Shown in pieces: positions 9,417 through 30,961 of a stretch of DNA of 32,150 bases; within the stretch, counting starts at the first letter, position 1, and the number at the start of each line of letters is the position of its first letter. A model generated the notes under the pieces. The model was not told the origin of the DNA and ran no database searches. It was given only the letters and a program-made list of their open reading frames with translations. The stretch lies in sequence record NC_049388.1. One strand, written 5' to 3'. The DNA comes from Peduovirus P24C9. A program made the translations under genes and the position numbers.

Positions 9417-10052
9417 ATGAACACTCTCGCAAATATCCAGGAACTCGCGCGCGCACTGCGCAACATGATCCGCACCGGCCTTGTCGTCGAAACCAACCTT
9501 AAAGCCGGTCGCTGCCGTGTGCAGACCGGCGGCATGTGCACCGACTGGCTTCAGTGGCTGACCTGTCGTGCCGGGCGTTCGCGCACATGGTGGGCACCTT
9601 CCGTGGGGGAACAGGTGCTGATTCTGGCCGTGGGCGGTGAACTCGACACGGCGTTCGTTCTGCCGGGGATTTATTCCGGCGATAACCCTGCGCCGTCTGC
9701 GTCGGCGGATGCACTGCATATCCGTTTTCCTGACGGGGCGGTGATTGAGTATGAACCCGAAACCAGTGCACTCACGGTAAGCGGAATTAAAACGGCCAGC
9801 GTAACGGCTTCTGATTCTGTTACCGCCACGGTGCCGGTGGTCATGGTGAAAGCATCAACCCGCGTCACCCTGGACACACCGGAGGTGGTCTGCACCAACA
9901 GGCTGATTACCGGCACGCTGGAAGTGCAGAAGGGCGGGACGATGCGCGGCAACATTGAACACACCGGCGGTGAACTCTCATCAAACGGTAAGGTACTGCA
10001 TACCCATAAACACCCCGGCGACAGCGGCGGCACAACCGGGAGTCCTCTATGA
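9417..10052 (+). CDS. V: Baseplate central spike protein
   Basis: 211 aa, P2 gpV length and position at the head of the V-W-J-I baseplate block. Confidence 0.85.
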   Translation: MNTLANIQELARALRNMIRTGLVVETNLKAGRCRVQTGGMCTDWLQWLTCRAGRSRTWWAPSVGEQVLILAVGGELDTAFVLPGIYSGDNPAPSASADALHIRFPDGAVIEYEPETSALTVSGIKTASVTASDSVTATVPVVMVKASTRVTLDTPEVVCTNRLITGTLEVQKGGTMRGNIEHTGGELSSNGKVLHTHKHPGDSGGTTGSPL

Positions 10053-10396
10053 CAGCGCGTTATCTCGGAATGAATCGCCGTGATGGCCTGACTGTCACTG
10101 ACCTTGAGCATATCAGCCAGAGTATCGGCGATATCCTGCGCACACCGGTCGGCTCACGGGTGATGCGTCGTGATTACGGCTCGTTGCTGGCGTCAATGAT
10201 TGACCAGCCGCAGACCCCGGCGCTTGAGTTGCAGATTAAGGTCGCCTGTTACATGGCGGTGCTGAAATGGGAACCCCGCGTCACCCTGTCATCCGTCACT
10301 ACGGCGCGCAGTTTTGACGGGCGAATGACGGTCACGTTAACCGGTCAGCACAACGACACCGGTCAGCCACTTTCGTTAACCATCCATGTGAGTTGA
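10049..10396 (+). CDS. W: Baseplate wedge protein W
   Basis: 115 aa, overlaps the V stop; P2 gpW length and position. Confidence 0.85.
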   Translation: MTARYLGMNRRDGLTVTDLEHISQSIGDILRTPVGSRVMRRDYGSLLASMIDQPQTPALELQIKVACYMAVLKWEPRVTLSSVTTARSFDGRMTVTLTGQHNDTGQPLSLTIHVS

Positions 10397-10400
10397 AACC

Positions 10401-11309
10401 ATGCCGATTATCGACCTGAACCAGCTACCCGCACCGGATGTGGTCGAGGAGCTGGACTTTGAAACCATTCTTGCCGAACGCAAGGCGACACTGATTTCCC
10501 TTTACCCGGAAGACCAGCAGGAGGCGGTCGCCCGTACCCTGACGCTGGAATCCGAGCCTCTCGTCAAACTGCTGGAGGAAAACGCTTATCGTGAGCTTAT
10601 CTGGCGTCAGCGTGTGAATGAGGCCGCACGGGCGGTGATGCTGGCCTGTGCAGCCGGTAATGACCTTGATGTGATTGGTGCCAATTACAACACCACGCGC
10701 CTGACTATCACCCCGGCAGATGATTCGACCATTCCGCCGACACCGGCAGTGATGGAATCTGACACCGATTATCGTCTGCGTATTCAGCAGGCGTTTGAGG
10801 GCTTAAGCGTCGCCGGGTCGGTGGGTGCTTATCAGTATCATGGTCGCAGTGCCGACGGGCGTGTCGCGGATATTTCTGTAACCAGTCCGTCTCCGGCCTG
10901 CGTCACCATCTCTGTGCTGTCACGTGAAAATAACGGTGTTGCATCCGAAGACCTGCTGGCCGTGGTGCGTAACGCCCTTAATGGCGAGGACGTCAGGCCG
11001 GTGGCCGACCGCGTGACCGTGCAGTCTGCCGCCATCGTTGAATACCAGATAAACGCCACGCTTTACCTTTACCCTGGTCCCGAAAGCGAACCCATACGCG
11101 CTGCCGCCGTGAAAAAACTGGAAGCGTACATCACGGCACAGCACCGGCTGGGGCGCGACATCCGTCTGTCTGCCATTTATGCCGCTTTGCATGTGGAAGG
11201 CGTGCAGCGTGTCGAGCTGGCCGCACCACTGGCCGACATCGTGCTCAACAGTACGCAGGCGTCTTTCTGCACCGAATGCCGCGTCGTGACCGGAGGCTCG
11301 GATGAGTGA
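10401..11309 (+). CDS. J: Baseplate protein J
   Basis: 302 aa, P2 gpJ length and position. Confidence 0.85.
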   Translation: MPIIDLNQLPAPDVVEELDFETILAERKATLISLYPEDQQEAVARTLTLESEPLVKLLEENAYRELIWRQRVNEAARAVMLACAAGNDLDVIGANYNTTRLTITPADDSTIPPTPAVMESDTDYRLRIQQAFEGLSVAGSVGAYQYHGRSADGRVADISVTSPSPACVTISVLSRENNGVASEDLLAVVRNALNGEDVRPVADRVTVQSAAIVEYQINATLYLYPGPESEPIRAAAVKKLEAYITAQHRLGRDIRLSAIYAALHVEGVQRVELAAPLADIVLNSTQASFCTECRVVTGGSDE

Positions 11310-11832
11310 TTCGCGACTGCTGCCGACCGGCTCATCACCGCTTGAAGTTGCCGCCGCAAAAGCCTGTGCGGAAATTGAAAAAACGCCGGTCAGTATTCGT
11401 GAGCTGTGGAACCCGGATACCTGTCCGGCAAATCTGCTGCCGTGGCTGGCGTGGGCGTTTTCGGTCGACAGGTGGGATGAAAAGTGGCCGGAAGCGACAA
11501 AACGCGCCGTTATCCGCGATGCCTATTTCATCCACTGTCATAAAGGCACTATCGGCGCAATCCGGCGTGTGGTGGAGCCGCTCGGCTATCTCATCAACGT
11601 GACGGAGTGGTGGGAAAACAGTGACCCGCCCGGCACCTTCCGGCTCGATATTGGTGTACTGGAAAGTGGCATCACAGAGGCAATGTATCAGGAAATGGAA
11701 CGGCTGATTGCTGATGCCAAACCCGCAAGTCGCCACCTTATCGGTCTGAACATTATCCAGGACATTCCCGGCTGTCTGTATACAGGCGGTGTGGTCTGTG
11801 ATGGTGATGTTATTACTGTTTATCCCGGATAA
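11302..11832 (+). CDS. I: Baseplate/tail protein I
   Basis: 176 aa, overlaps the J stop; P2 gpI length and position. Confidence 0.85.
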   Translation: MSDSRLLPTGSSPLEVAAAKACAEIEKTPVSIRELWNPDTCPANLLPWLAWAFSVDRWDEKWPEATKRAVIRDAYFIHCHKGTIGAIRRVVEPLGYLINVTEWWENSDPPGTFRLDIGVLESGITEAMYQEMERLIADAKPASRHLIGLNIIQDIPGCLYTGGVVCDGDVITVYPG

Positions 11833-11842
11833 GTGAGAAACA

Positions 11843-14602
11843 ATGAGCACGAAATTTAAAACCGTTATCACTACTGCCGGAGCCGCAAAGCTGGCAGCCG
11901 CCACTGTCCCCGGCGGGAAAAAAGTAAACCTGTCTGCAATGGCCGTGGGTGACGGTAATGGCAAATTGCCGGTGCCGGATGCCGGTCAGACGAAACTGGT
12001 GCATGAGGTCTGGCGTCACGCTCTGAATAAAGTCAGCGTGGATAATAAGAATAAAAACTATATCGTGGCTGAACTGGTGGTACCGCCAGAAGTGGGCGGC
12101 TTCTGGATGCGTGAACTTGGTCTGTATGACGATGCCGGAACACTGATTGCGGTCGCCAACATGGCAGAAAGCTATAAGCCTGAACTGGCTGAAGGCTCCG
12201 GACGTGCGCAGACCTGCCGCATGGTCATTATTGTCAGTAACGTGGCATCCGTTGAGCTGAGTATTGATGCCAGCACAGTGATGGCGACGCAGGATTACGT
12301 CGATGACAAAATCGCAGAGCATGAGCAGTCCCGTCGCCATCCTGACGCCACGCTGACAGAAAAAGGTTTTACTCAGTTAAGCAGTGCAACAAACAGCACC
12401 AGTGAAAAGCTGGCAGCAACGCCAAAGGCAGTAAAAGCAGCCTATGACAATGCTGAAAAACGTATGCAGAAAGACCAGAACGGTGGCGATATTCCAGATA
12501 AGGGCGCTTTTCTGGACAATGTTGGCGTTACCAGCCTGACGTTTATGAAAAACAATGGCGAAATGCCGCTTGATGCTGACCTGAATACATTTGGTCCCGT
12601 TAAGGCTTATCTGGGGATCTGGTCTAAAGCTACCTCAACTAACGCAACACTGGAGAAAAATTTCCCGGAAGATAATGCTGTCGGTGTGCTTGAGGTTTTT
12701 GCTGCCGGCAATTTTGCAGGTACGCAACGCTTTACCACAAGAGACGGCAATGTATACATGCGTAAACTCGCCAATAAGTGGAATGGCACTGATGGTCCGT
12801 GGGGCGTATGGCGTCACACTCAATCAGCTACCCGCCCTTTGAGTACGACTATAGACCTGAATACGCTTGGAGCCGCCGAACATCTTGGTTTATGGCGTAA
12901 CAGTAGCTCGGCTATAGCTTCATATGAACGCAATTATCCAGAGGAAGGCGGCTTTGCTCAGGGGACGCTTGAGATCCTCGAAGGCGGGAATTATGGAAGA
13001 ACGCAACGTTATACCACTCGCCGTGGAAATATGTACGTCCGCTGCCTTGCGGCAAGCTGGGATGCATCAAATCCGCAGTGGGAACCGTGGTTAAGAGTCG
13101 GTCATCAGTCAGAGAGTCGTTATTACGACGGGGATTTGAATGATGTGACTTCACCAGGTATTTACAGCGTTACAGGTAAAGCGACCAACGGTCCAGTACT
13201 GGACGGAAACGGCGTGACAGTCCTCGGTATTCTGGAAGTGTTGAGGCGCTTTGATGGTGTTAACGTATGGCAGCGTTATACAACTGCCGGAACAGGTACA
13301 ACCCTTAAAGGTCGCACGTTTGAGCGTGTTTTTACCGGCAGCTCATGGAGCGAATGGCGGGAAGTTTACACATCTTATTCACTTCCCCTGAATCTGGGCA
13401 TCGGTGGCGCAGTGGCAAAACTATCCAGTCTGGACTGGCAGACCTACGACTTTGTACCGGGTAGTCTGATAACCGTTCGGCTTGATAATATGACCAACAT
13501 TCCCGACGGTATGGACTGGGGCGTCATTGATGGCAACCTGATAAACATCTCAGTCGGTCCGAGTGATGATTCTGGTTCGGGACGCTCGATGCATGTATGG
13601 CGCAGCACTGTAAGTAAGGCCAACTACCGCTTTTTTATGGTGCGTATTTCAGGAAATCCGGGAAGCCGCACGATCACAGCAAGACGAGTACCAATCATTG
13701 ACGAAGCCCAGACATGGGGCGCGAAACAGACATTCAGTGCTGGCCTTTCTGGTGAACTGTCCGGCAATGCGGCGACAGCAACAAAGCTGAAAACAGCCCG
13801 TAAAATTAATAACGTTTCGTTTGATGGAACATCAGATATTAACCTGACGCCGAAAAATATTGGTGCATTTGCTTCAGGAAAAACAGGAGACACCGTTGCG
13901 AATGATAAAGCCGTTGGGTGGAACTGGAGTAGCGGAGCCTATAACGCAACTACTGGTGGGGCATCAACGTTAATTCTTCATTTTAATATCGGTGAAGGAA
14001 GTTGTCCCGCCGCCCAGTTCCGCGTTAATTATAAGAACGGCGGTATTTTTTATCGTTCTGCTCGTGACGGTTACGGATTCGAGGCTGACTGGTCTGAGTT
14101 TTATACCACAACGCGAAAACCTACAGCGGGAGATGTCGGTGCACTGCCGTTATCTGGTGGTCAATTGAATGGTGCTCTGGGTATAGGAACATCCAGTGCT
14201 CTTGGCGGTAATTCGATTGTTTTGGGTGATAATGACACGGGCTTTAAACAAAATGGTGATGGTAATCTGGATGTTTATGCTAATAGCGTCCATATTATGC
14301 GCTTTGTCTCGGGAAGTATTCAAAGTAATAAAACCATAAATATTACGGGGCGTGTTAATCCCTCGGATTACGGTAACTTTGATTCCCGCTATGTCCGGGA
14401 TATCCGGCTTGGTGGTGCTGCCACATACAAACCTGCGAACAATGGCATGACATGGACACATCAGGCACCGTCCGGGTGTGTATATTCCGGCATTATTGTT
14501 CAGGATACCGGCTCAAACTCTGCCGATAACATTGGTGGTGTATATTACAGACCGGTTCAGAAATACATTAACGGGACATGGTATAACGTGGCGCAGGTAT
14601 AA
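11843..14602 (+). CDS. H: Tail fibre protein, with P2 H-like N-terminus and a divergent repeat-containing C-terminal region
   Basis: 919 aa (P2 gpH is shorter, as I recall); the first ~200 aa look P2 H-like; aa ~240-500 hold three ~80-90 aa tandem repeats; DNA becomes visibly AT-richer from ~12300. Confidence 0.85.
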   Translation: MSTKFKTVITTAGAAKLAAATVPGGKKVNLSAMAVGDGNGKLPVPDAGQTKLVHEVWRHALNKVSVDNKNKNYIVAELVVPPEVGGFWMRELGLYDDAGTLIAVANMAESYKPELAEGSGRAQTCRMVIIVSNVASVELSIDASTVMATQDYVDDKIAEHEQSRRHPDATLTEKGFTQLSSATNSTSEKLAATPKAVKAAYDNAEKRMQKDQNGGDIPDKGAFLDNVGVTSLTFMKNNGEMPLDADLNTFGPVKAYLGIWSKATSTNATLEKNFPEDNAVGVLEVFAAGNFAGTQRFTTRDGNVYMRKLANKWNGTDGPWGVWRHTQSATRPLSTTIDLNTLGAAEHLGLWRNSSSAIASYERNYPEEGGFAQGTLEILEGGNYGRTQRYTTRRGNMYVRCLAASWDASNPQWEPWLRVGHQSESRYYDGDLNDVTSPGIYSVTGKATNGPVLDGNGVTVLGILEVLRRFDGVNVWQRYTTAGTGTTLKGRTFERVFTGSSWSEWREVYTSYSLPLNLGIGGAVAKLSSLDWQTYDFVPGSLITVRLDNMTNIPDGMDWGVIDGNLINISVGPSDDSGSGRSMHVWRSTVSKANYRFFMVRISGNPGSRTITARRVPIIDEAQTWGAKQTFSAGLSGELSGNAATATKLKTARKINNVSFDGTSDINLTPKNIGAFASGKTGDTVANDKAVGWNWSSGAYNATTGGASTLILHFNIGEGSCPAAQFRVNYKNGGIFYRSARDGYGFEADWSEFYTTTRKPTAGDVGALPLSGGQLNGALGIGTSSALGGNSIVLGDNDTGFKQNGDGNLDVYANSVHIMRFVSGSIQSNKTINITGRVNPSDYGNFDSRYVRDIRLGGAATYKPANNGMTWTHQAPSGCVYSGIIVQDTGSNSADNIGGVYYRPVQKYINGTWYNVAQV

Positions 14603-14605
14603 TTT

Positions 14606-15133
14606 ATGCAGCATTTAAAAAATATTACGGCGGGTAATCCAAAAACGGTTGAACAATATCAATTGACAAAGGACTTTGATGTTGTCTGGTTTTTTTCAGA
14701 AGATGGTAAGAACTGGTACGAAGAACAAAAGTATTTTGCTGATGACACGATAAAAATAGCGTACGACAAAGATAATATTATCCGCTATGTGGAAAAGGAT
14801 GTGACAGCTATCAGACCGGATGGATTAAGTGTTGTTGAAGTGGCGGATATTACTACTAACCGACGGGCGGACATTTCAGGGGGCTGGATGTTTAAGGACG
14901 GCAAAGTGATTAAACGCATTTATACGGCAGAGGAATTGCTGCAGCAGGCAGAAAACCGGAAAGCCAGACTTCTTGCAGATGCTGAATCCGTGATTTTGCC
15001 GCTGGAGCGCGCGGTCAGACTGAACATGGCAACAGATGAGGAGCGTAGCCGACTGGAAGCATGGGAACGCTACAGCGTTCTGGTCAGTCGTGTGGAGCCT
15101 GCAAATCCTAAATGGCCGGAAATGCCGCAATAA
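14606..15133 (+). CDS. G: Tail fibre assembly chaperone
   Basis: 175 aa directly after H; matches my recollection of P2 gpG (conserved ...[13 protein letters not shown]...PEMPQ C-terminus). Confidence 0.85.
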
Positions 15134-15281
15134 GTTGTATGAGCTTACATATCTATTGCGTAGAGTAAAGCATAATCTGACAGTCCGCTCTGTGCCAGAA
15201 GCGGACATAGCAGGTGCCAGATGCATCTGTTATTCTTCATTGAATTGAGCAGTATCCTTAACAGGAACTCTGAATACATAA

Positions 15282-15920
15282 ATGAAGATGAAAAACATGT
15301 CTGAAGTGTTGACCCAAGAAAAGCTTATTTTTGTTGCCCAGAGACTAAAGGCCCTCGCGCAGTCAGGCCTGACCTATTCAAAAGACGTCTTTGACAAGGA
15401 ACGCTATGAAGCCTTGCGTGAAATTGCCGCTGGACTGCTGAGTTCGCAGTTTGATATTAGCCGCAATGATTTGTTTCATGTATCGGAAACGGGTTACGCG
15501 ACGCCCAAAACAGATGTGCGTGCGTTTATCCTGCGCAATAATCGTATTCTGATGGTGAAAGAGGCTGCAGATGGATTATGGAGTCTTCCTGGCGGATGGG
15601 CAGATGTTGGAGATACACCTTCTGAAGCTGTGCGTCGAGAGGTCGAAGAAGAAACCGGATTAAAAGTCAGAGTGACTAAACTATTGGGAGTTTGGGATCG
15701 TAATCTTCACGGCCATCCGCCTTTACCCTGGCATGTTTACAAGCTGATTTTTCTCTGTGAAGAAGTAGGTGGCAGCCTGTCAATCAGCCATGAGTCACTC
15801 GATGCTGATTTTTTTGATGTCAACGACCTGCCTGAATTGTCGCTTTCAAGAATTGTGCCTGAGCAGATTGCTGTCAGCCTGAGAGTAGCGAAAGGTGATG
15901 AAAAAACATGGTTTGATTAA
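15282..15920 (+). CDS. Nudix-family hydrolase with an N-terminal extension (accessory gene)
   Basis: Nudix box GWADVG-D-TPSEAVR-REVEEETGL fits GX5EX7REUXEEXGU with Asp for the first Glu; ~90 aa N-terminal domain; AT-richer than flanks; inserted between G and FI. Confidence 0.8.
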   Translation: MKMKNMSEVLTQEKLIFVAQRLKALAQSGLTYSKDVFDKERYEALREIAAGLLSSQFDISRNDLFHVSETGYATPKTDVRAFILRNNRILMVKEAADGLWSLPGGWADVGDTPSEAVRREVEEETGLKVRVTKLLGVWDRNLHGHPPLPWHVYKLIFLCEEVGGSLSISHESLDADFFDVNDLPELSLSRIVPEQIAVSLRVAKGDEKTWFD

Positions 15921-15943
15921 CTTTCTTCTGCAACCATTAAGGA

Positions 15944-16588
15944 ATGGCAATGATATTCAACGCTAAGGGTTTTTTATTCGATATGGACGGTACGCTGGTT
16001 GATTCAACAGCCGTAGTGGAAAGCGTCTGGAGAGATTTTTGTGCAGAATACGGTCTTGATACTCAGGCTGTGATTGCTTACGCACACGGGCGGCAAACGA
16101 TTGATACACTGACGCATTTTATTGGTGCAGGTGAGAAAACCAATAAAATCGCGGCCTCACTCGAAGAGGTTGAAATCAACACGACAGAAGGCGTTACTGA
16201 AGTAAAAGGGGCCGCTGCACTCTTATCAAAACTGCCACCGGATAGCTGGGCACTTGTCACTTCGGCAGGCAGAATGCTTGCCGAAAACAGGATGAAAGCG
16301 GCTAATCTCCCCTTACCCATAGTAATGGTGTGTGCAGAAGATGTAATGACGGGAAAACCAAGTCCCGAGGGTTACATCAAAGCAGCTTTGGCTTTGGGCC
16401 TTGAGCCTGGTGAATGCGTGGTATTTGAGGATGCATCTGCGGGTATAAAAGCAGGGCTGGCAAGTGGAGCTTCGGTAATAGCTGTTCAGCCTGACGCTCC
16501 GGGATCATCTGAAGCCCATGCCGTCAGCGAACTGTCTGACATTATGGTCAAGATTTCCGGAGAACGTTTCAATATCATCTGTGGTTAA
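15944..16588 (+). CDS. HAD-superfamily phosphatase, YfbT-like sugar-phosphatase subfamily (accessory gene)
   Basis: HAD motif I FLFDMDGTLVDS (DxDGT), conserved Lys in GKPSPEGY, motif IV-like FEDASAGIKAG; overall resemblance to E. coli YfbT as I recall it; RBS aggaatgg precedes the ATG. Confidence 0.8.
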   Translation: MAMIFNAKGFLFDMDGTLVDSTAVVESVWRDFCAEYGLDTQAVIAYAHGRQTIDTLTHFIGAGEKTNKIAASLEEVEINTTEGVTEVKGAAALLSKLPPDSWALVTSAGRMLAENRMKAANLPLPIVMVCAEDVMTGKPSPEGYIKAALALGLEPGECVVFEDASAGIKAGLASGASVIAVQPDAPGSSEAHAVSELSDIMVKISGERFNIICG

Positions 16589-16740
16589 TCACGTTACACA
16601 ATACGCATCAATGGACGCTGAGTAGTTCGCGAGTTTTAAACTTCCAACGTCCGCTTTTCGCTCCAAGCAGACTGTCAGATTTGATAGCGTTTTGGCTATG
16701 TAAATTGTCAGTCGGAAAATGAGTGAATACAAATCAGGAC

Positions 16741-16769
16741 AGGCGGGCTGATTGCCCGCCTTTTCTTTA
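16741..16769 (+). terminator. Rho-independent terminator after the accessory pair
   Basis: Hairpin ggcgggc-tgatt-gcccgcc followed by TTTTCTTT, lying between the HAD stop and the FI start. Confidence 0.65.
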
Positions 16770-16864
16770 TCTGTTGTTTCATCCCCTGACCAGCCAGGTC
16801 AAATAGCGTCTCATGCTCTGCACAACAGAAAATAGTTGCACCCATTAACCACGGAGTTAAACGG

Positions 16865-18055
16865 ATGAGTGACTATCATCACGGCGTGCAGGTGCTGGAG
16901 ATTAACGACGGCACCCGCGTCATTTCCACCGTATCCACTGCCATTGTCGGCATGGTCTGCACGGCCAGCGATGCGGATGCGGAAACCTTTCCCCTCAATA
17001 AACCTGTGCTGATTACCAATGTGCAGAGCGCAATTGCAAAGGCCGGTAAAAAAGGCACGCTGGCGGCGTCGCTGCAGGCCATCGCCGACCAGTCAAAACC
17101 GGTCACCGTTGTTGTGCGCGTGGAAGACGGCACCGGCGACGACGAGGAAACGAAACTTGCGCAGACCGTTTCCAATATCATCGGCACCACCGACGAAAAC
17201 GGTCAGTACACCGGACTGAAAGCCCTGCTGGCGGCGGAGTCAGTAACCGGTGTTAAACCGCGTATTCTCGGCGTGCCGGGACTGGACACCAAAGAGGTGG
17301 CTGTTGCACTGGCATCGGTCTGTCAGAAGCTGCGCGCTTTCGGGTATATCAGCGCATGGGGCTGTAAGACCATTTCCGAGGTGAAAGCCTACCGCCAGAA
17401 TTTCAGCCAGCGTGAGCTGATGGTCATCTGGCCGGATTTCCTCGCATGGGATACGGTCACCAGTACCACCGCCACCGCGTATGCCACCGCCCGTGCGCTG
17501 GGTCTGCGCGCTAAAATCGACCAGGAGCAGGGCTGGCATAAAACGCTGTCCAACGTCGGGGTGAACGGTGTTACCGGCATCAGCGCGTCCGTATTCTGGG
17601 ATTTGCAGGAGTCCGGCACCGATGCTGACCTGCTTAACGAGTCAGGCGTCACAACGCTGATTCGCCGTGACGGTTTCCGCTTCTGGGGTAACCGTACCTG
17701 CTCTGATGACCCGCTGTTCCTCTTTGAAAACTACACCCGCACCGCGCAGGTGCTGGCCGACACGATGGCTGAGGCGCACATGTGGGCGGTGGACAAGCCC
17801 ATCACCGCAACGCTGATTCGCGACATCGTTGACGGCATCAATGCCAAATTCCGTGAGTTGAAAACAAACGGCTATATCGTGGATGCGACCTGCTGGTTCA
17901 GCGAAGAATCCAACGATGCGGAAACCCTCAAGGCCGGAAAACTGTATATCGACTACGACTATACACCGGTACCTCCTCTTGAAAACCTGACCCTGCGCCA
18001 GCGTATTACCGATAAATACCTGGCAAATCTGGTCACCTCGGTTAACAGCAATTAA
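16865..18055 (+). CDS. FI: Tail sheath protein
   Basis: 396 aa, P2 FI length and position, followed by the tube gene. Confidence 0.9.
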   Translation: MSDYHHGVQVLEINDGTRVISTVSTAIVGMVCTASDADAETFPLNKPVLITNVQSAIAKAGKKGTLAASLQAIADQSKPVTVVVRVEDGTGDDEETKLAQTVSNIIGTTDENGQYTGLKALLAAESVTGVKPRILGVPGLDTKEVAVALASVCQKLRAFGYISAWGCKTISEVKAYRQNFSQRELMVIWPDFLAWDTVTSTTATAYATARALGLRAKIDQEQGWHKTLSNVGVNGVTGISASVFWDLQESGTDADLLNESGVTTLIRRDGFRFWGNRTCSDDPLFLFENYTRTAQVLADTMAEAHMWAVDKPITATLIRDIVDGINAKFRELKTNGYIVDATCWFSEESNDAETLKAGKLYIDYDYTPVPPLENLTLRQRITDKYLANLVTSVNSN

Positions 18056-22004: not shown

Positions 22005-23167
22005 TGCTGGATGCGCTGACATTTGATGCAGGCAGTACGCTGACGCCGGATTACATGCTGATGCTCGACAGCAGGGATATTACCGGCAATATCAGCGACC
22101 GTCTGATGAGCATGACCCTGACGGATAACCGGGGCTTTGAGGCTGACCAGCTTGATATTGAACTGAACGACGCCGACGGGCAGGTAGGGCTACCGGTTCG
22201 TGGCGCTGTCCTGACGGTGTATATCGGCTGGAAAGGTTTTGCCCTGGTATGCAAAGGGAAATTTACCGTTGATGAGGTTGAACACCGGGGCGCACCGGAT
22301 GTGGTCACCATCCGCGCCCGGAGTGCAGATTTTCGCGGGACGCTCAATTCCCGCCGTGAAGGCTCCTGGCATGACACCACGCTCGGTGCGATTGTTGAGG
22401 CGATAGCCTCCCGTAACAGGCTGGAAGCCAGTGTCGCGCCGTCACTGGCAGGAATTAAAATCCCGCACATTGACCAGTCGCAGGAGTCTGATGCGAAATT
22501 CCTGACCCGTCTTGCAGAACGCAACGGCGGTGAGGTGTCGGTAAAAATGGGAAAACTGTTGTTTCTCAAAGCGGGGCAGGGCGTGACGGCCAGCGGTAAA
22601 AAAATCCCGCAGATTACCATCACCCGCAGCGACGGCGACCGTCATCATTTTGCGATTGCTGACCGTGGAGCTTACACCGGCGTAACGGCAAAGTGGTTAC
22701 ACACCAAAGACCCGAAGCCGCAAAAGCAGAAGGTAAAACTGAAACGCAAAAAGAAAGAAAAACACCTGCGCGCACTGGAGCACCCGAAAGCGAAACCGGT
22801 CACGCAGAAGAAAGCGCCAAAAGTACCGGAAGCGCGCGAAGGTGAATACATGGCCGGTGAAGCTGACAACGTTTTTGCCCTGACTACGGTATATGCCACG
22901 AAAGCACAGGCCATGCGCGCCGCTCAGGCGAAGTGGGATAAACTGCAACGGGGCGTTGCGGAGTTCTCCATCAGCCTTGCCACTGGTCGTGCTGATATTT
23001 ACACGGAAACACCGGTCAGAGTGTCAGGCTTTAAGCGCGTCATAGACGAGCAGGACTGGACAATCACTAAGGTGACACATTTTCTGAATAATAGCGGCTT
23101 CACGACGTCCTTGGAGCTTGAGGTCAGGCTTTCTGATGTGGAGTACGAAACAGAAGATGATGAGTAA
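22004..23167 (+). CDS. D: Tail protein D
   Basis: 387 aa, P2 gpD length and position; contains an internal Lys-rich low-complexity segment. Confidence 0.85.
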   Translation: MLDALTFDAGSTLTPDYMLMLDSRDITGNISDRLMSMTLTDNRGFEADQLDIELNDADGQVGLPVRGAVLTVYIGWKGFALVCKGKFTVDEVEHRGAPDVVTIRARSADFRGTLNSRREGSWHDTTLGAIVEAIASRNRLEASVAPSLAGIKIPHIDQSQESDAKFLTRLAERNGGEVSVKMGKLLFLKAGQGVTASGKKIPQITITRSDGDRHHFAIADRGAYTGVTAKWLHTKDPKPQKQKVKLKRKKKEKHLRALEHPKAKPVTQKKAPKVPEAREGEYMAGEADNVFALTTVYATKAQAMRAAQAKWDKLQRGVAEFSISLATGRADIYTETPVRVSGFKRVIDEQDWTITKVTHFLNNSGFTTSLELEVRLSDVEYETEDDE

Positions 23168-23248
23168 TGTTTTTATTTTATCTGTTTGTTTTATAAGGAT
23201 AAATTAACTAAAATGGCACCGTCAACAAAACCGGAAGAGGTGCTCGCG

Positions 23249-23467
23249 ATGTTTCATTGTCCTTTATGCCAGCATGCCGCACATGCGCGTACAAGCCGCT
23301 ATATCACTGACACGACAAAAGAGCGTTATCACCAGTGTCAGAACGTGAATTGCAGCGCCACGTTCATCACTTATGAGTCGGTACAGCGATACATCGTGAA
23401 GCCGGGAGAAGTCCACGCCGTAAGACCGCACCCGTTGCCGTCAGGGCAGCAAATTATGTGGATGTAA
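23249..23467 (+). CDS. ogr: Ogr-type zinc-finger late transcription activator
   Basis: 72 aa from internal ATG 23249 (MFHCPLCQHAAHARTSRY...CQNVNC...); Cys-x2-Cys ... Cys-x4-Cys zinc finger; sequence is what I recall for P2 Ogr; ORF track extends upstream to 23186. Confidence 0.9.
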   Translation: MFHCPLCQHAAHARTSRYITDTTKERYHQCQNVNCSATFITYESVQRYIVKPGEVHAVRPHPLPSGQQIMWM

Positions 23468-23478
23468 TTACAAACAGG

Positions 23479-23506
23479 AAGCCCCTCAGTCGAGGGGCTT
23501 TTTTGT
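23479..23506 (+). terminator. Rho-independent terminator after ogr
   Basis: Hairpin gcccctc-agtc-gaggggc followed by TTTTTTGT. Confidence 0.75.
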
Positions 23507-23527
23507 CAATGTGGTCAATGTGTGGAC
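23505..23527 (+). repeat. Tandem direct repeats (tcaatgtg...TGTGGAC), putative Int arm-type sites on the left att arm
   Basis: gtcaatgtggtcaatgtgtggac read directly; the TGTGGAC motif recurs on the other side of the core at 23684-23703. Confidence 0.5.
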
Positions 23528-23568
23528 GTGACCAGAAATAAATCCTTTTATTTCATTGTATTACGCGT

Positions 23569-23595
23569 AAAAAATAAGCCCGTGTAAGGGAGATT
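23569..23595. other. Putative attP core
   Basis: aaaaaataagcccgtgtaagggagatt lies between ogr and the 3' end of int and matches the P2 attP core as I recall it; flanked by TGTGGAC repeats. Confidence 0.6.
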
Positions 23596-23674
23596 TAGGG
23601 TGTCACCAGTAGGGGCTTTCAACGGTACAATGCGGGTTTGAGCGGCATAAATTACCACTGAAAGCCCTTAAACG

Positions 23675-24688
23675 TTACTCTACTGTGGACACTGTGTGGA
23701 CACTCTCGGCCTCAGTACCACCTCTTAGCGGATTAAGAGAAATGGCGTCCTGAAGGTACTCTGGCGCAAAATGAGCGTAAACCATAGTTTGCTCAATCCG
23801 CGTGTGACCTAGTATCCGTTGTAGCGTGATAATACTTCCTCCATTAATCATGAAATGAGTGGCAAAGCTGTGCCTTAGTGCATGTGTGGCTTGCCCCATT
23901 GGCAAATCCGGTTTTATTGCTTTCATTGTTCGTCTGAAGCGAGGGTAATCAGCATCAGGGAATAAAAAACCTCGTTTGTTATCCGCGATCATTTTGGCAA
24001 CAGCCTCTGAGATCGGGACGGTGCGTGGTTTGTTTGTTTTCGTTTTAACAAACGTGACGCGGTTATGGATGATATTTTCTGCTTTCAAACGAGCTGCTTC
24101 TCCCCAACGTGCTCCAGTACTCAGGCAAAGAATCGCAATCTTTTTGTTGTCGCCGTCAAGAGCAGCAAGCAGTAAGGCAATTTCTTCCTGCGTGAGATAG
24201 CCTGTGTCTGGTTTTTCCTCCTTAAGCCTTTTTGTCCCTCTGATAGGGTGCTCACCAAAGAATAACTCCGCTTCAATCAGGGCTGTAAACATGCCGCTAA
24301 TACATGTTAAATCACGATTGATACTCGAAGGTTTAATACCCTGACTTCTTCGGGTGGCGCAGTACTGGCTGATAAGCGATTTCGTAATTTGAAATGCGCA
24401 TGGGTCATTCGTTATTTTTGTGAAGATTTCAATTTTTCCAAGATTAGATTTCCCATGCTCTTCGTGTTTACCCTTTAAATCCCACCAGATCTGTGTCAGC
24501 TCCGACAGACGTCGCTTGTCTGTTGGTTTTGATAGCCATTCTTTATTGTGGTGGTTGTACAACGTGTATTTCTCGAAAGCGACAGCTTCGCTTTTCTTAT
24601 CAAACTTCCTACGGATGCGTTTTCCATTACGTCCAGTAGGGCGGATGTCCACTTCATATCGACCATCATCGAGTTTTTTGATTGCCAT
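23675..24688 (-). CDS. int: Tyrosine integrase
   Basis: 337 aa; C-terminal catalytic signature HALRHSFATH ... GHTRIEQTMVYAH (His-x-x-Arg plus catalytic Tyr); P2 int position and orientation. Confidence 0.9.
   Translation of the reverse strand: MAIKKLDDGRYEVDIRPTGRNGKRIRRKFDKKSEAVAFEKYTLYNHHNKEWLSKPTDKRRLSELTQIWWDLKGKHEEHGKSNLGKIEIFTKITNDPCAFQITKSLISQYCATRRSQGIKPSSINRDLTCISGMFTALIEAELFFGEHPIRGTKRLKEEKPDTGYLTQEEIALLLAALDGDNKKIAILCLSTGARWGEAARLKAENIIHNRVTFVKTKTNKPRTVPISEAVAKMIADNKRGFLFPDADYPRFRRTMKAIKPDLPMGQATHALRHSFATHFMINGGSIITLQRILGHTRIEQTMVYAHFAPEYLQDAISLNPLRGGTEAESVHTVSTVE
23684..23703 (+). repeat. Tandem direct repeats TGTGGACAC x2, putative Int arm-type sites on the right att arm
   Basis: ctgtggacactgtgtggacac read directly; same motif and orientation as 23521-23527; lies inside the last codons of int. 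Confidence 0.5.
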
Positions 24689-24803
24689 CAGAAAACCCTC
24701 CGAGTGGTGTGTTTTTTTGCGACTACTAATCGCTTTTTTCGTGGTGGCTGAAATTTAGCCACCAATAGTAGGCACTTGTGATGAATATATTCACGATGAA
24801 TTG

Positions 24804-25103
24804 TTAACCAGTCTTTTGACCGGAGTGGGGCGACGTTGTTTCGTTTTGCCCAAAGTGTGCGAGAGCGGGCGCAATTTGCCCGGACTCAGGAGCGATCTGA
24901 TTGGTCATGAACCATAAAGTGTATTTGGTGAATTGTGGGGTCTGCAGGATGTTCATCATGACATCTGTTGGAGGTGTTGAACGACCACTTTCATAGTAAC
25001 TCAGCGTGCCATACGGAACCCCTGTTAAATCAGCAAGTTGTTGTCTGCTCAAATACTCTGATTTTCGCATTAAGACTATCTTCTCGCTTATCGTGTTTGA
25101 CAT
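24804..25103 (-). CDS. C: Immunity repressor C
   Basis: 99 aa with a helix-turn-helix segment (QQLADLTGVPYGTLSYYESG); divergent from cox; matches P2 C length. Confidence 0.85.
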   Translation of the reverse strand: MSNTISEKIVLMRKSEYLSRQQLADLTGVPYGTLSYYESGRSTPPTDVMMNILQTPQFTKYTLWFMTNQIAPESGQIAPALAHFGQNETTSPHSGQKTG

Positions 25104-25217
25104 GGTGTTTAGATCTCAATAGTATTTAGTTTAGATGTAGATTGTTTAGTGCTTGGATGTGGGCACTAAAAGGCATTATAAGACATTAAACGCAATTCAT
25201 GAGGGCTAGAGGACGAC
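25104..25217. promoter_or_regulatory. C/cox divergent promoter-operator region
   Basis: 114 bp AT-rich gap between divergent C and cox starts, with clustered direct repeats TTTAGAT/TTTAGTT/GTAGATT/TTTAGTG at ~25108-25151. Confidence 0.6.
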
Positions 25218-25493
25218 ATGAGCAAGCAAGTAACACTCATGACTGATGCGATTCCTTATCAGGAGTTCGCAAAACTAATAGGAAAATCGACAGGAGCGGT
25301 TCGTCGGATGATCGATAAAGGAAAGCTGCCTGTAATTGATATGACCGATCCACAATCAGCTTCAGGTCGTGCAGGTGAATATTGGGTATACCTTCCGGCA
25401 TGGAATAACGGACTAAAACTGGCTTATGAAAGCCGACCTAAAGAGATTCGTGACGGCTGGTTGATGTGGTTAGGTCTCGGTGAACCACGTTAA
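25218..25493 (+). CDS. cox: Cox excisionase / transcriptional switch protein
   Basis: 91 aa, first gene of the early rightward operon, divergent from C; matches P2 Cox length. Confidence 0.85.
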   Translation: MSKQVTLMTDAIPYQEFAKLIGKSTGAVRRMIDKGKLPVIDMTDPQSASGRAGEYWVYLPAWNNGLKLAYESRPKEIRDGWLMWLGLGEPR

Positions 25494-25503
25494 GGAGAAC
25501 CGT

Positions 25504-25674
25504 ATGAATGAGCCTCGTTGTATTGCTCAGTTACTGCGTAACGAAAGCCCCAGGGCGATTGACTTCACCATCACCCACGGTAAGGGGCGTAAGGGAATCA
25601 TTATCCGCACCAAAAAACAGAGTCCGTTAAAAAAGGCTCTGACCTTTCTGAAAAGCCGGAGGGTATGGAAATGA
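25504..25674 (+). CDS. Small basic early protein (P2 orf78 position)
   Basis: 56 aa from ATG 25504 preceded by RBS taaggag; the ORF track start at 25480 is a GTG overlapping cox. Confidence 0.5.
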   Translation: MNEPRCIAQLLRNESPRAIDFTITHGKGRKGIIIRTKKQSPLKKALTFLKSRRVWK

Positions 25675-26171
25675 CAGTGATGACGCTCAATCTCGTTGAA
25701 AAACAGCCAGCAGCTATGCGCCGGATAATTGGTAAGCATCTTGCCGTTCCTCGCTGGCAGGATACATGTGATTATTATAATCAGATGATGGAGCGCGAAC
25801 GGCTAACAGTTTGCTTTCATGCGCAGTTAAAACAGCGTCACGCAACGATGCGTTTTGAAGAAATGAACGACGTCGAACGTGAACGACTGGTATGTGCAAT
25901 TGATGAATTGCGTGGGGCATTCTCAAAACGTCGTCAGGTCGGTGCAAGTGAGTATGCATATATTAGTTTTTTAACAGTCAGTCAGCGTCGTACTTTATTT
26001 ATGCATGCCGGATTGACTGAAAAAGAATTTAACCAGCCATACTGGCGAATTAATGAAGAGTCATGTTACTGGCGTGATGCTTTATTCCGTGCATTACGTG
26101 AATTATTCAGCCTGTTTGAGTATGCACCGACAATTCTGACGTCGGTAAAACCAGAGCAATATCTGCATTAA
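25665..26171 (+). CDS. B: Replication protein B (helicase-loader-like)
   Basis: 168 aa ORF at the P2 B position; start could be 25665 (MEM) or 25671 (MTVM). Confidence 0.75.
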   Translation: MEMTVMTLNLVEKQPAAMRRIIGKHLAVPRWQDTCDYYNQMMERERLTVCFHAQLKQRHATMRFEEMNDVERERLVCAIDELRGAFSKRRQVGASEYAYISFLTVSQRRTLFMHAGLTEKEFNQPYWRINEESCYWRDALFRALRELFSLFEYAPTILTSVKPEQYLH

Positions 26172-26234
26172 GTAATTAACCAGAGTTTTTAACGCACTTA
26201 ATCGTGCGGGGCTTCTTTTTGCCTGGAGAAAGTT

Positions 26235-26459
26235 ATGCATACAGTTTCTGAAAATCAGTGCGGTAAATACGCATTACTGCTGCAACAGGCCAGAACCGAA
26301 GCACAGGCCGACGCTGCGACGCGCTTTTCTTCTCATCTTGATGCCATGATTCGCCACATCACAAAGGCGGAGTTATCCCGCGTGGAGATAGTCGAGCTGC
26401 TCAGTCAGGAGTCGGAAAAATTTCACAATATCGGATTGTCTCGCGGGGAGGTGCTTTGA
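26235..26459 (+). CDS. Hypothetical early protein (P2 orf80 position)
   Basis: 74 aa ORF in the early operon between B and A; no recognisable motif. Confidence 0.5.
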
Positions 26460-26761
26460 TGTCCTGTTCTCGTTCAGTTGTATTACTGAATAACGCCTTA
26501 AAAATCGCCGTTATGAAAAATGGCGATTTGTCTCTTATTCAACTTGGTCTTGATAAAGAAAAACGCGAAATAACTGAGTCTGTTATCGCGATTTATCAGA
26601 ACGAATTAAACCTCCTGTCTGATGTGGTCAATTTGCTTGTTAAACGCGCTGTGTTTCACAAGCAAATCTCCTCCGTGGATGAACTGACGAAATTAACGAC
26701 AGAAATCGCCAGCTATTGCGCTGATGAATTTAAAAACCTTAACGACAAAAGGAACTGGTAA
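26456..26761 (+). CDS. Hypothetical early protein (P2 orf81 position)
   Basis: 101 aa ORF overlapping its neighbours' stop and start; no recognisable motif. Confidence 0.5.
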
Positions 26762-26985: not shown

Positions 26986-27257
26986 GTATTCGTATTGAAA
27001 TTGGCGAACGTTATGTCGTTACCAGTGACAGCTTTCAGTTTATTCTCCACGAGAAAAAGAGAGCTGAAAGCGGTAAAAACGCCGGTCAGGAATGGCTGGC
27101 GGTGGTTGGTTATTACCCGAAATTAAGCCAGCTCGTTTCCGGCCTGATGCATCACGATATTCTGACCGGAAGCGCAAAGTCTTTTGCTGATTTAAACGCG
27201 CAGGTTGAGCAACTCAGCAAGCGTTGTTCAGAGGCTTTTGGCTCATATGGCCGTTAA
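26982..27257 (+). CDS. Hypothetical early protein (P2 orf83 position)
   Basis: 91 aa ORF overlapping the start of A. Confidence 0.5.
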   Translation: MSIRIEIGERYVVTSDSFQFILHEKKRAESGKNAGQEWLAVVGYYPKLSQLVSGLMHHDILTGSAKSFADLNAQVEQLSKRCSEAFGSYGR

Positions 27258-29502
27258 AGCCTCCGGGCGTTTTGTCCCTCCGTCAGCATTTGCCGCAGGC
27301 ACCGGTAAGACGTTTACCGGTGCTTATGCATGGAACGCGCCACGCGAGGCCGTCGGGCGCGAAAGACCCCTTACACGTGACGAGATGCGTCAGGTGCAAG
27401 GTGTTTTATCCACGATTAACCGCCTGCCTTACTTTTTGCGCTCGCTGTTTACTTCACGCTATGACTACATCCGGCGCAATAAAAGCCCGGTGCACGGGTT
27501 TTATTTCCTCACATCCACTTTTCAGCGTCGTTTATGGCCGCGCATTGAGCGTGTGAATCAGCGCCATGAAATGAACACCGACGCGTCGTTGCTGTTTCTG
27601 GCAGAGCGTGATCACTATGCGCGCCTGCCGGGAATGAATGACAAGGAGCTGAAAAAGTTTGCCGCCCGTATCTCATCGCAGCTTTTCATGATGTATGAGG
27701 AACTCAGCGATGCCTGGGTGGATGCGCATGGCGAAAAAGAATCACTGTTTACGGATGAGGCTCAGGATCACCTGTATGGTCATGTTGCTGGCGCTGCACG
27801 AGCTTTCAATATTTCCCCTCTCTACTGGAAAAAATACCGTAAAAGACAGATGACCACGAGGCAGGCATATTCTGCCATTGCCCGTCTGTTTAACGATGAG
27901 TGGTGGACTCATCAGCTTAAAGGCCAGCGTATGCGCTGGCATGAAGCGTTACTGATAGCTGTCGGGGAGGTCAATAAAGACCGTTCTCCTTATGCCAGTA
28001 AACACGCCATTCGTGATGTGCGTGCGCGCCGCCAGGCAAATCTGGAATTTCTTAAATCGTGTGACCTTGAAAACAGGGAAACCGGCGAGCGCATCGACCT
28101 TATCAGTAAGGTGATGGGCAGTATTTCTAATCCTGAAATTCGCCGGATGGAGCTGATGAACACCATTGCCGGTATTGAGCGTTACGCCGCTGCAGAGGGT
28201 GATGTGGGGATGTTTATCACGCTGACCGCGCCGTCAAAGTATCACCCGACACGTCAGGTAGGAAAAGGCGAAAGTAAAACCGTGCAGCTTAATCACGGCT
28301 GGAACGATGAGGCATTTAATCCAAAGGATGCGCAGCGTTATCTCTGCCGTATCTGGAGCCTGATGCGCACGGCATTCAAGGATAATGATTTACAGGTCTA
28401 CGGTTTGCGTGTCGTCGAGCCACACCACGACGGAACGCCGCACTGGCATATGATGCTTTTTTGTAATTCACGCCAGCGTAACCAGATTATCGAAATCATG
28501 CGTCGCTATGCGCTCAAAGAGGATGGCGACGAAAGAGGAGCCGCGCGAAACCGTTTTCAGGCAAAACACCTTAACCGGGGCGGTGCTGCGGGATATATCG
28601 CGAAATACATTTCAAAAAACATCGACGGCTATGCACTGGATGGTCAGCTCGATAACGACACCGGCAGGCCGCTGAAAGACACTGCAGCGGCTGTTACCGC
28701 ATGGGCGTCAACGTGGCGCATCCCGCAATTTAAAACGGTTGGCCTGCCGACAATGGGGGCTTACCGTGAACTACGCAAATTGCCGCGCGGCGTCAGCATT
28801 GCTGATGAGTTTGACGAGCGCGTCGAGGCTGCACGCGCCGCCGCAGACAGTGGTGATTTTGCGTTGTATATCAGCGCGCAGGGTGGGGCAAATGTCCCGC
28901 GCGATTGTCAGACTGTCAGAGTCGCCCGTAGCCCGTCGGATGAAGTTAACGAGTACGAGGAAGAAGTCGAGAGAGTGGTCGGCATTTACGCGCCGCATCT
29001 CGGCGCGCGTCATATTCATATCACCAGAACGACGGACTGGCGCATTGTGCCGAAAGTTCCGGTCGTTGAGCCTTTGACTTTAAAAAGCGGCATCGCCGCG
29101 CCTCGGAGTCCTGTCAATAACTGTGGAAAGCTCACCAGTGGTGATACTTCGTTACCGGCTCCCACACCTTCTGAACACGCCGCAGCAGTGCTTAATCTGG
29201 TTGATGACGGTGTTATCGAATGGAATGACCCGGAGGTCGTGAGGGTGCTCAGGGGCGCATTAAAACACGGCCTGAGAACACCAAATCGTCAGCAAAGAAA
29301 CGGAAGCCCGTTAAAACCACATGAAATTGCACCATCGGCCAGGCTGACCCGGCCGGAACGATTGCAAATTACCCGTATCCGCGTTGACCTTGCTCAGAAC
29401 GGTATCAGGCCTCAGCGATGGGAGCTTGAGGCGCTGGCGCGTGGGGCGATGGTGATTTATGATAATAAAAAATTCAAATATCCAGTGATTGATGAGTGGT
29501 AA
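27247..29502 (+). CDS. A: Replication initiation protein A (HUH rolling-circle endonuclease)
   Basis: Start placed at ATG 27247 (MAVKASGRF...); ORF track begins at 27205. Contains an HUH-like motif (PHWHMMLF) and a Tyr motif (GYIAKYISKN); P2 gpA-like size. Confidence 0.85.
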   Translation: MAVKASGRFVPPSAFAAGTGKTFTGAYAWNAPREAVGRERPLTRDEMRQVQGVLSTINRLPYFLRSLFTSRYDYIRRNKSPVHGFYFLTSTFQRRLWPRIERVNQRHEMNTDASLLFLAERDHYARLPGMNDKELKKFAARISSQLFMMYEELSDAWVDAHGEKESLFTDEAQDHLYGHVAGAARAFNISPLYWKKYRKRQMTTRQAYSAIARLFNDEWWTHQLKGQRMRWHEALLIAVGEVNKDRSPYASKHAIRDVRARRQANLEFLKSCDLENRETGERIDLISKVMGSISNPEIRRMELMNTIAGIERYAAAEGDVGMFITLTAPSKYHPTRQVGKGESKTVQLNHGWNDEAFNPKDAQRYLCRIWSLMRTAFKDNDLQVYGLRVVEPHHDGTPHWHMMLFCNSRQRNQIIEIMRRYALKEDGDERGAARNRFQAKHLNRGGAAGYIAKYISKNIDGYALDGQLDNDTGRPLKDTAAAVTAWASTWRIPQFKTVGLPTMGAYRELRKLPRGVSIADEFDERVEAARAAADSGDFALYISAQGGANVPRDCQTVRVARSPSDEVNEYEEEVERVVGIYAPHLGARHIHITRTTDWRIVPKVPVVEPLTLKSGIAAPRSPVNNCGKLTSGDTSLPAPTPSEHAAAVLNLVDDGVIEWNDPEVVRVLRGALKHGLRTPNRQQRNGSPLKPHEIAPSARLTRPERLQITRIRVDLAQNGIRPQRWELEALARGAMVIYDNKKFKYPVIDEW

Positions 29503-29677: not shown

Positions 29678-30961
29678 TTATTGTGGCCAGTCCCAGTTAT
29701 CATATTGTTGAATTTTTTCTGATAACACTTGAGGTGCACTACCGTGAGTTACATTTTCAGCATAACCAATCGTACCGACATAGTTAATGTCATCAACATC
29801 AAGTGTATTGGCCTCCCATGGCCGTATCTTGCGAGTTGGTTCACAGATAGAAACGTCACGATTGATGGTTTTTAACCACGATATATTTATTACATTTGCG
29901 CCTGCAGCTTTTAGATACATTCTGGCTGTTTCATGAGCATTTCCTTCAGTGCAAAAATCATCAATAACTAATATTTTCTTACCTTTCAATTTAGGAGGGT
30001 TGGTATATCTTTCGCCGGTGATGAGGTTTTTAATAGGGGCAGGATTTAAATTAACGGTGTTTATTTGAGATGTGATGTTTACTTCTTGCTTAGCTATCCG
30101 AGCTTGCTGTGATTTAATAGCTGTTGTATGTCGTAAGAATAGATCTTTTAGATACTTTCCTTTGAATGAGACTGCTAAACCTTTTAGGTCATGCTCCATA
30201 ATGTTTGCTAGTTTATAAGGATCTTCAGCGTTATGTCCAACGTAGGTGGTTATAAAACTTGCTCCTTCACTTAAGCCAGAGAAATAAATGCTAGCACCAA
30301 GATATCTTATCCAAAAATCGGGGCTTCCAACCGATAGCTTTGCGAGGTCTCTTGCATTGGCTGAATACATTGTAAATTCAGGGACATATGTGCTAAATGG
30401 TGCTAAGGCGTAGTAGTGAACATCTTCATTAAAATGCCCTTGCCATCCCCACAACTGCTCTCTTAAGCAAAAGACATCAATAAATCTAGCGATTTCTTTG
30501 GGTTCTGAAAATTGAAAACCGTACTCAGTAACCGGTTCATACCAGGTCGCATTAATAAATAGGGTATTCCCGTTGGTAGCTGCTTGTAAGTCTTCCTGAG
30601 AACGCCCTACATAGATCATTTCGTTTCGTTTTAATTCTAACGCAGCCATGATGAAATCTATGGCCTTCCCTGTTTGTTTTGCTGGTATGTTGTTGTCGAG
30701 TTCACGGCAAAAGTGAATTGATTCTGGGAATTTCCTTTTTAGGTATTCGTCTAGTGTTACGATCCCGTCATGTGTTCTCACGTTTCTATTTTTATTTGTC
30801 AAGAAGATAACTTTAATCCCTTTTGATGACAAAAACGCAAACAACTTACGTAATTCAGAGTCGATTCTAGATTTTAGTTCCTGAGGTTGAGTGTTAGATG
30901 TTAATGGTAATACAACATCTGCGATTGAAAATATAACTGCCTTTAAATACATATTATTCAT
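29678..30961 (-). CDS. Phosphoribosyltransferase-domain protein, second gene of the accessory operon
   Basis: 427 aa; C-terminal PRTase-like motif KKILVIDDFCTEGNAHET; N-terminal half has degenerate HAD-like motifs (VIFSIADVV, IYVGRSQEDLQAATNGN); start overlaps the upstream gene by 8 nt; AT-rich. Confidence 0.7.
   Translation of the reverse strand: MNNMYLKAVIFSIADVVLPLTSNTQPQELKSRIDSELRKLFAFLSSKGIKVIFLTNKNRNVRTHDGIVTLDEYLKRKFPESIHFCRELDNNIPAKQTGKAIDFIMAALELKRNEMIYVGRSQEDLQAATNGNTLFINATWYEPVTEYGFQFSEPKEIARFIDVFCLREQLWGWQGHFNEDVHYYALAPFSTYVPEFTMYSANARDLAKLSVGSPDFWIRYLGASIYFSGLSEGASFITTYVGHNAEDPYKLANIMEHDLKGLAVSFKGKYLKDLFLRHTTAIKSQQARIAKQEVNITSQINTVNLNPAPIKNLITGERYTNPPKLKGKKILVIDDFCTEGNAHETARMYLKAAGANVINISWLKTINRDVSICEPTRKIRPWEANTLDVDDINYVGTIGYAENVTHGSAPQVLSEKIQQYDNWDWPQ

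Follow-up and report, generated by a model that had tools for sequence, protein, structure and literature searches.

Phage P2 is said to have exchanged tail-fibre segments horizontally with Mu, P1, lambda and T-even phages, a textbook example reportedly set out by Haggard-Ljungquist and colleagues in 1992. Here we describe gene H of Peduovirus P24C9 (NC_049388.1), which encodes a tail fibre protein of 919 residues; the window that was analysed is the whole stretch of 32,150 nucleotides. The closest described fibre is gpH of Yersinia phage L-413C (NC_004745). In the account of Garcia et al. 2008 relayed by PMC7460101, L-413C gpH is a four-region recombinant hybrid, with a P2-like N-terminal part of 207 residues and a C-terminal part of 137 residues around a foreign mosaic middle. 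The same summary states that it attaches to Y. pestis cells and serves as the receptor-binding protein of a phage specific for Y. pestis, and that the L-413C receptor is N-acetylglucosamine of the lipopolysaccharide (LPS) outer core (PMC7460101). The P2 receptor is LPS (PMC9594776). Related parts are found in gp37 of T-even phages (T6, T2 and RB-type), in the Mu fibre S/S' (PDB 8JU3 and 5YVQ) and in the R1 and R2 pyocin fibres (PDB 6CL5 and 6CL6; Buth et al. 2018, PMC6116203). The latter belong to P2-related contractile tails and carry two tandem knob domains, antiparallel sheets of five to six strands with long loops, together with a shaft and a lectin-like foot.

Gene H and its relation to P2 and L-413C

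Gene H lies in the position of a Peduovirus gpH. Upstream of it are homologues of P2 V, W, J and I, and next comes G, a gene of the Caudo_TAP chaperone family; the order V-W-J-I-H-G-…-FI agrees with that of P2, as judged from the open reading frames (ORFs) and from the annotation of Escherichia phage 11W and P2. The N terminus is the tail-collar fibre domain homologous to residues 1 to about 200 of P2 H, with the Pfam family Phage_tail_fib over residues 1-151 and a Phage_fiber_2 repeat over residues 170-210, and residues 1-204 are 86% identical to P2 gpH. The initial annotation of this DNA had described H as a 919-residue mosaic with a P2-like start of about 200 residues and a non-P2 middle, and the protein and DNA comparisons with P2 (NC_001895) agree with that description. 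P2 DNA homology runs from 9417 to 12448 at 92% and then ends; it is absent from 12449 to 14196, reappears at 14197-14286 (81%) and 14548-15206 (76%), and resumes at 95% from 16645. Because P2 homology ends there, the P2/non-P2 junction is placed by the alignment at about nucleotide 12448 (residue ~202), some 150 nucleotides downstream of position 12300, from which a shift in base composition had been noted.

Beyond the junction, residues ~205-769 have no homology to P2 gpH, which is only 669 residues long and contains no knob domains in a search with a hidden Markov model (HMM). The lack of full-length collinearity excludes a P2-type allele, not membership of the gene family. The C-terminal part had been taken to be foreign as a whole; this holds as far as residue ~769, but residues 770-919 align by BLASTP with P2 H 472-669, including the motifs GDNDTGFKQNGDG and INGTWYNVAQV, and the C-terminal motif is identical in the two proteins. 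The tip within this stretch has diverged from P2, and so has G, which is of the same length and family as P2 G but 74% identical to it.

The match to L-413C gpH is far more extensive. The two proteins (913 and 919 residues) are collinear from end to end with P2-like ends around a non-P2 middle of ~560 residues, and they share the P2-like N terminus, three knobs at the same positions, a domain of ~105 residues that we call D4, a Mu S'-like domain and a distal shaft. Identity is very uneven along the protein (Table 1); it reaches 99% over residues 621-770 and falls to 47% in knobs 1 and 3 and to 25% in a replaced tip of 55 residues. L-413C retains a P2-type tip and a P2-type G, whereas the tip and G found here are of the type of phage fiAA91-ss. 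H is very probably a mosaic of several modules, of a type for which L-413C was the first described case. This confidence covers the explanation as a whole, from the observed module boundaries, homologies and knob fold to the trimer geometry, binding roles and receptor that are proposed below.

This form of H is not peculiar to one phage. The query covered the first 25 kb of the window, which match Escherichia phage 10W (OM475433.1) with 100% identity, and in both 10W and 11W the H coding sequence bears the annotation 'tail fiber protein GpH'; a literature search on phage 10W itself found no paper describing it. A match spanning 80% or more of the gene is present in 26 phage records and in 169 of 5426 complete E. 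coli genomes, and the best-matching E. coli genomes listed carry H at full length with 97-98.7% identity, so this H type is an established allele. The finding is therefore real but already known, since H has been deposited and annotated and its hybrid architecture described for L-413C, and it had in part been explained wrongly. The knob family, too, already has a name in NCBI annotation and has been characterized structurally in pyocins. What the present analysis adds is limited to a finer module map, a block of three knobs and D4 shared with T-even gp37, and the swap of tip and G relative to L-413C.

Table 1. Modules of tail fibre protein H and the adjacent chaperone gene G, with positions in the window (i-E, independent E-value; AF2, AlphaFold2)
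Feature	Residues of H	Nucleotides	Strand	Evidence	Identity to L-413C
Gene H, tail fibre protein, 919 residues	1-919	11843..14602	+	ORF; 100% nucleotide identity to 10W/11W GpH; PHROG 381 (tail fiber) E 4e-204	76%
P2-type N-terminal module (baseplate attachment)	1-202	11843..12448	+	PF12571 residues 1-151, E 5e-58; PF03406 residues 170-210, E 7e-21	99%
Mu S-like linker (…KDQNGGDIPDKGAFLDNVGVT…)	203-240	12449..12562	+	phmmer to Mu S	71%
Knob domain 1 (R1)	243-332	12569..12838	+	knob HMM i-E 4.5e-36; hhalign to R2 99.8%; AF2 5-strand sheet	47%
Knob domain 2 (R2)	335-424	12845..13114	+	knob HMM i-E 1.2e-40; AF2 model	68%
Knob domain 3 (R3), divergent copy	428-514	13124..13384	+	knob HMM i-E 1.2e-22; R1+R2-only HMM i-E 1e-3; AF2 strand pattern	47%
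Domain D4 (~105 residues), in gp37-like block	516-620	13388..13702	+	55% identity to T6 gp37	70%
Junction motif GNAATATKLKTARKINNVSFDGTSDINLTP	641-670	13763..13852	+	T6 gp37 residues 63-106, 66% identity	
Mu S'-like / gp37_C domain	672-768	13856..14146	+	phmmer to 8ju3 residues 321-417; Pfam gp37_C E 5e-6	99%
Distal shaft, gp37 trimerisation-like	770-850	14150..14392	+	BLASTP to P2 H 472-~530; PF20744 E 3e-4, below curated cutoff	97%
Fibre tip, swapped relative to P2 and L-413C, presumed to contact the receptor	851-905	14393..14557	+	25% identity to L-413C	25%
Conserved C-terminal 14 residues (…RPVQKYINGTWYNVAQV)	906-919	14558..14599	+	identical in P2, L-413C and fiAA91-ss H; conserved in Mu S	100%
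Gene G, tail fibre assembly chaperone, 175 residues, tip-matched allele		14606..15133	+	Caudo_TAP E 5e-33	75%

Knob domains and the block shared with T-even gp37

Three related repeats had been recognized in the middle of H, and the comparison of the repeats with each other and with known structures bears this out. R1 and R2 aligned by Smith-Waterman with z = 30 against shuffled sequences and by hhalign with a probability of 99.8% (E 4.7e-29), and their DLNT motifs, at nucleotides 12578 and 12854, are spaced by exactly 276 nucleotides, or 92 codons. Profile comparisons align R3 in register with them (hhalign E 1.5e-5 and 2.2e-4), and so does a profile built from R1 and R2 only. When the three repeats were stacked, L, P, R, W and W were invariant and D and Q-Y-T-T nearly so. 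An AF2 model of residues 221-526 (predicted local distance difference test score, pLDDT, 75) showed three units with the same pattern of five to six strands in each, R3 included.

The repeat region had no match in Pfam or NCBIfam, nor in the PDB when searched by phmmer. However, the profile of the stacked repeats matched the PDB entries 6cl5_A (E 3.8e-7), 6cl6_A (4.7e-6) and 6ct8_A (7.6e-5) by hmmsearch, as well as gp47 of Pseudomonas phage Pa193, and the top Foldseek matches of the AF2 model were the R1 and R2 pyocin fibres (E 1.8e-7 and 7.6e-7). Database homologues of the region are labelled 'pyocin knob domain-containing protein' by NCBI. Profile, model and naming agree, and the predicted fold is the antiparallel sheet of five to six strands with long loops that defines the knob (PMC6116203); the three repeats are pyocin-type knob domains. 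Sequence identity to the pyocin knobs is ~20%, and the fibres differ in that H has three knobs instead of two and continues with D4, a gp37_C-type domain and a chaperone-dependent tip. Against 1.84 billion representative proteins the knob profile found 2206 clusters, 425 of them at E <= 1e-10, and among the best 150 matches the number of copies per protein ranged from 1 to 8; therefore, an array of three is ordinary. Tandem Repeats Finder detected no DNA-level tandem repeat, and the only DNA repeat found was the pair of DLNT motifs, 22 nucleotides long. The knob duplication is thus old.

The knobs and D4 together form a block that H shares with the long tail fibres of T-even phages. Residues 226-~630 are collinear with residues 105-510 of T6 gp37 at 55% identity, and residues 236-641 were covered to at least 80% in 220 phage records, most of them Tequatrovirus gp37 with 59-62% identity over at least 98% of the length. 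Both knob 1 and knob 2 are 68% identical to T6 gp37. The relationship is confined to this block and a linker motif, since the N and C termini of T6 gp37 are unrelated to those of H. In T-even phages the N-terminal end of gp37 binds gp36, and in T6 gene 38 follows the gp37 C terminus. D4 had no match in Pfam, NCBIfam or the PDB, and the AF2 model of residues 505-641 was poor (pLDDT 35) and based on a shallow alignment. A fourth, degenerate knob was considered for D4 and rejected, as the motif resemblance was superficial, there was no HMM match and the hhalign probability was 1%.

The linker motif, with the pattern GNAATATKLKTARKINxVSFDGxxDIxLTP, follows the knob and D4 block in H but precedes it in T6 gp37. 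Past this motif, database homologues switch to differing C-terminal modules, namely a gp37_C type, a collar type (PF07484) or a Mu S' tip. By its distribution, GNAATATKL…FDG looks like a shared recombination or junction linker. Mu-related sequence flanks the block on both sides. Residues 167-233, comprising the end of the anchor and the linker, matched Mu tail fibre S by phmmer (5yvq residues 110-176 and 8ju3 residues 111-173), and residues 672-768 matched the S/S' fibre of 8ju3 with 167.6 bits and a domain i-E of 3.7e-48; with the other stretches included, the whole of H matched 8ju3 with an E-value of 3.3e-69. Mu also has a chaperone of the Caudo_TAP family, but there is no invertible segment and no alternative S'U' set in P24C9.

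Tip, chaperone G and host range

G had been thought to have stayed P2-like. This is misleading: V, W, J, I and FI share 96-99% identity with their P2 counterparts and G only 74%, and G travels with the swapped tip. Taken by halves, G is 67-68% identical in its N-terminal and 80-85% in its C-terminal half. Tip and G together occur at 94-99% nucleotide identity in phages 12W, D8, P24E6b, P22H1, fiAA91-ss, 9W and P22H4 (95% in fiAA91-ss), and the tip is near-identical to that of fiAA91-ss gpH, a fibre of 692 residues that lacks the knob block. For many otherwise close H genes, megablast similarity ends at nucleotide 2552 of the query, corresponding to residue 851. L-413C, in contrast, has kept the P2-type tip, and its G is 95% identical to P2 G. 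Because the G allele co-varies with the tip across relatives, including L-413C with its pairing of P2-type tip and P2-type G, tip and G move as one cassette. The variable N-terminal domain of Tfa, the Mu fibre chaperone, reportedly binds the fibre C terminus in the Mu fibre-Tfa complex described by North and colleagues in 2019, and the co-variation fits that arrangement. H carries both marks of the Tfa-dependent tips of the Mu S, P2 H and lambda Stf class, the …INGTWYN(V)A motif and an adjacent Tfa (Caudo_TAP) gene. The tip also matches the C-terminal 70 residues of the short tail fibre of Pectobacterium phage phiTE (9cuy_c residues 483-552, E 2.7e-18), a part that lies outside the experimentally modelled fibre residues 3-92 (PMC11972413). 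Phage phiTE has been reported as flagellotropic and LPS-independent.

Taken together with the pyocin and Mu structures, the module map suggests how the fibre may work. H would be a homotrimer anchored to the baseplate through its P2-type N terminus (residues 1-202). By analogy with the pyocins, three copies of each knob would pack with three-fold symmetry on the fibre axis into a bead with the loops turned to the solvent, and the beads may make the shaft longer and stiffer, nucleate folding of the trimer and perhaps make secondary contacts with saccharides such as LPS. Knobs are thought to aid trimer folding and occur in saccharide-binding fibres (PMC6116203). The tip, folded with its cognate chaperone G, would most probably make the primary receptor contact, and host range would be set combinatorially by the middle block and by the tip and G cassette that a phage carries. 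The exchanged region had been equated with the receptor-binding region as such; the repeats are knobs of the shaft that T-even gp37 also carries as a block, and they are not obviously the adhesin. A host range different from that of P2 is plausible by the precedent of L-413C gpH, to which H is collinear at 76% identity. Since the tip and knobs 1 and 3 all differ, the receptor, likely of the LPS-core type judging by the receptors of these relatives, would probably be recognized with a specificity unlike that of L-413C and P2.

Several points weigh against parts of this explanation. Pairwise sequence comparison supports R3 weakly, with z-scores against R1 and R2 of only 3.8 and 2.0. The AF2 knob model is a monomer with a predicted template modelling score of 0.45, and its inter-domain geometry is unreliable. 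The division of binding roles between knobs and tip is carried over from work on pyocins and Mu, and for R-pyocins Knob2 has been argued to outweigh the C-terminal domain (PMC6116203), so that the tip may not be the primary adhesin.

The alternative that survives best takes up this last point and makes the three knobs, not the C-terminal tip, the main determinants of host range, with saccharide-binding surface loops on each knob trimer that would read the LPS core or O-antigen and a divergence of knobs 1 and 3 that would reflect selection for new specificities. Against L-413C, identity is only 47% in knobs 1 and 3 but 97-99% over residues 1-202 and 621-850, and knob 1 is nearer to T6 gp37 than to L-413C. 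Predicted loops hold a disproportionate share of the differences from L-413C (48% identity versus 66% in strands, Fisher p = 0.005), but in nearly every protein the loops are more variable than the strands, and the enrichment does not discriminate. Knob2 is the most variable region of the R-pyocin fibre (PMC6116203), and fibres and spikes that bind saccharides contain knob-like domains (PMC6116203, PMC11871291). On the other hand, the tip is more divergent still and co-varies with G, as expected of the adhesin end, and ~400 residues separate the knob block from the distal end of the fibre. We therefore regard knobs as the main determinants as doubtful. A related and equally tentative idea is that the knob block could be a second, independently evolving receptor-reading module, with knob cassettes exchanged between temperate P2-like and virulent T-even phages and thereby retuning recognition of LPS or other glycans. 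If so, host range would be encoded at two sites ~400 residues apart, the knobs and the tip, as proposed for R-pyocins.

H offers a clean worked example of a modular fibre, with junctions at residue ~202, at the GNAATATKL…FDG motif and at residue ~851 and a G that co-varies with the tip. Maps of this kind show where fibres may be cut and re-joined for retargeting phages or R-pyocins, and which chaperone has to be paired with which tip.

Base composition and other features of the window

The shift in base composition is real and stepwise. The GC fraction is 0.581 in V-I, 0.528 over H residues 1-202, 0.485 over H residues 203-919 and 0.453 in G. The equivalent intervals of P2 gave 0.579, 0.559, 0.483 (H residues 203-669) and 0.438 (G). 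Since distal H and G of P2 share this composition without the knob block, the AT-richer sequence is no signature of exchange relative to P2, as had been supposed; the shift marks the distal-fibre and chaperone region of P2-like phages generally. Composition as evidence of a recent import was rejected on the same ground. A second lower-GC stretch (0.43-0.47) lies at 23000-26600 and contains an ORF of 337 residues on the minus strand (23675-24688) and several small ORFs.

That a T-even phage of low GC recently donated the receptor-binding region to a P2 backbone is accordingly very unlikely. Such an import would account for the fall in GC from 0.58 in V-I to 0.485 in distal H and for the homology of residues 226-630 to T-even gp37, but P2 shows the same drop without the block, and at the nucleotide level the block aligns with T6 in two patches of no more than 65-69% identity. 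Its GC fraction is 0.503 here compared to 0.429 in T6. Moreover, within distal H the knobs are lowest in AT (GC 0.49-0.51), the GC minimum being found in the distal shaft and tip (residues 771-919) and G, which are related to P2, Mu and fiAA91-ss, and the near-identical full-length copies in E. coli genomes mark an established allele. That the repeats are a chance resemblance or low complexity, and the third especially no real copy, is scarcely credible, because the blank self-comparison of H by BLASTP (the diagonal only, with no off-diagonal match), the low pairwise scores of R3 and the lack of a Pfam or NCBIfam model are outweighed by the Smith-Waterman and hhalign results, which refute it for R1 and R2, and by the recovery of R3 in register, the strand topology common to the three units, the match of the stacked profile to solved pyocin knobs and the exact 92-codon spacing.

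ORFs of 80-175 residues on the minus strand within H were without support, and no RNA family was detected by Rfam at 11000-17000. Between G and FI, where P2 has Z/fun, there are two cargo genes on the plus strand, an intact NUDIX hydrolase (Nudix_N + NUDIX; 15282-15920) and a HAD-family phosphatase (15944-16588), followed by a strong terminator-like hairpin at 16741-16761. Among 50,697 phage records this cargo is intact solely in phage 10W; phage 11W has degraded remnants at 70-80% nucleotide identity that are annotated as 'similar to hypothetical protein'. Near the right end of the window, downstream of an ORF of 765 residues at 27205-29502, lies a very AT-rich island (GC 0.34-0.40) on the minus strand at 29678-32003. 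P2-like phages carry variable cargo genes at roughly this position. Its two ORFs of 427 and 349 residues match the Shosta anti-phage defence system, with PADLOC E-values of 2.6e-295 for ShosT and 2.2e-231 for ShosA, the latter with a DprA-like DNA_processg_A domain.

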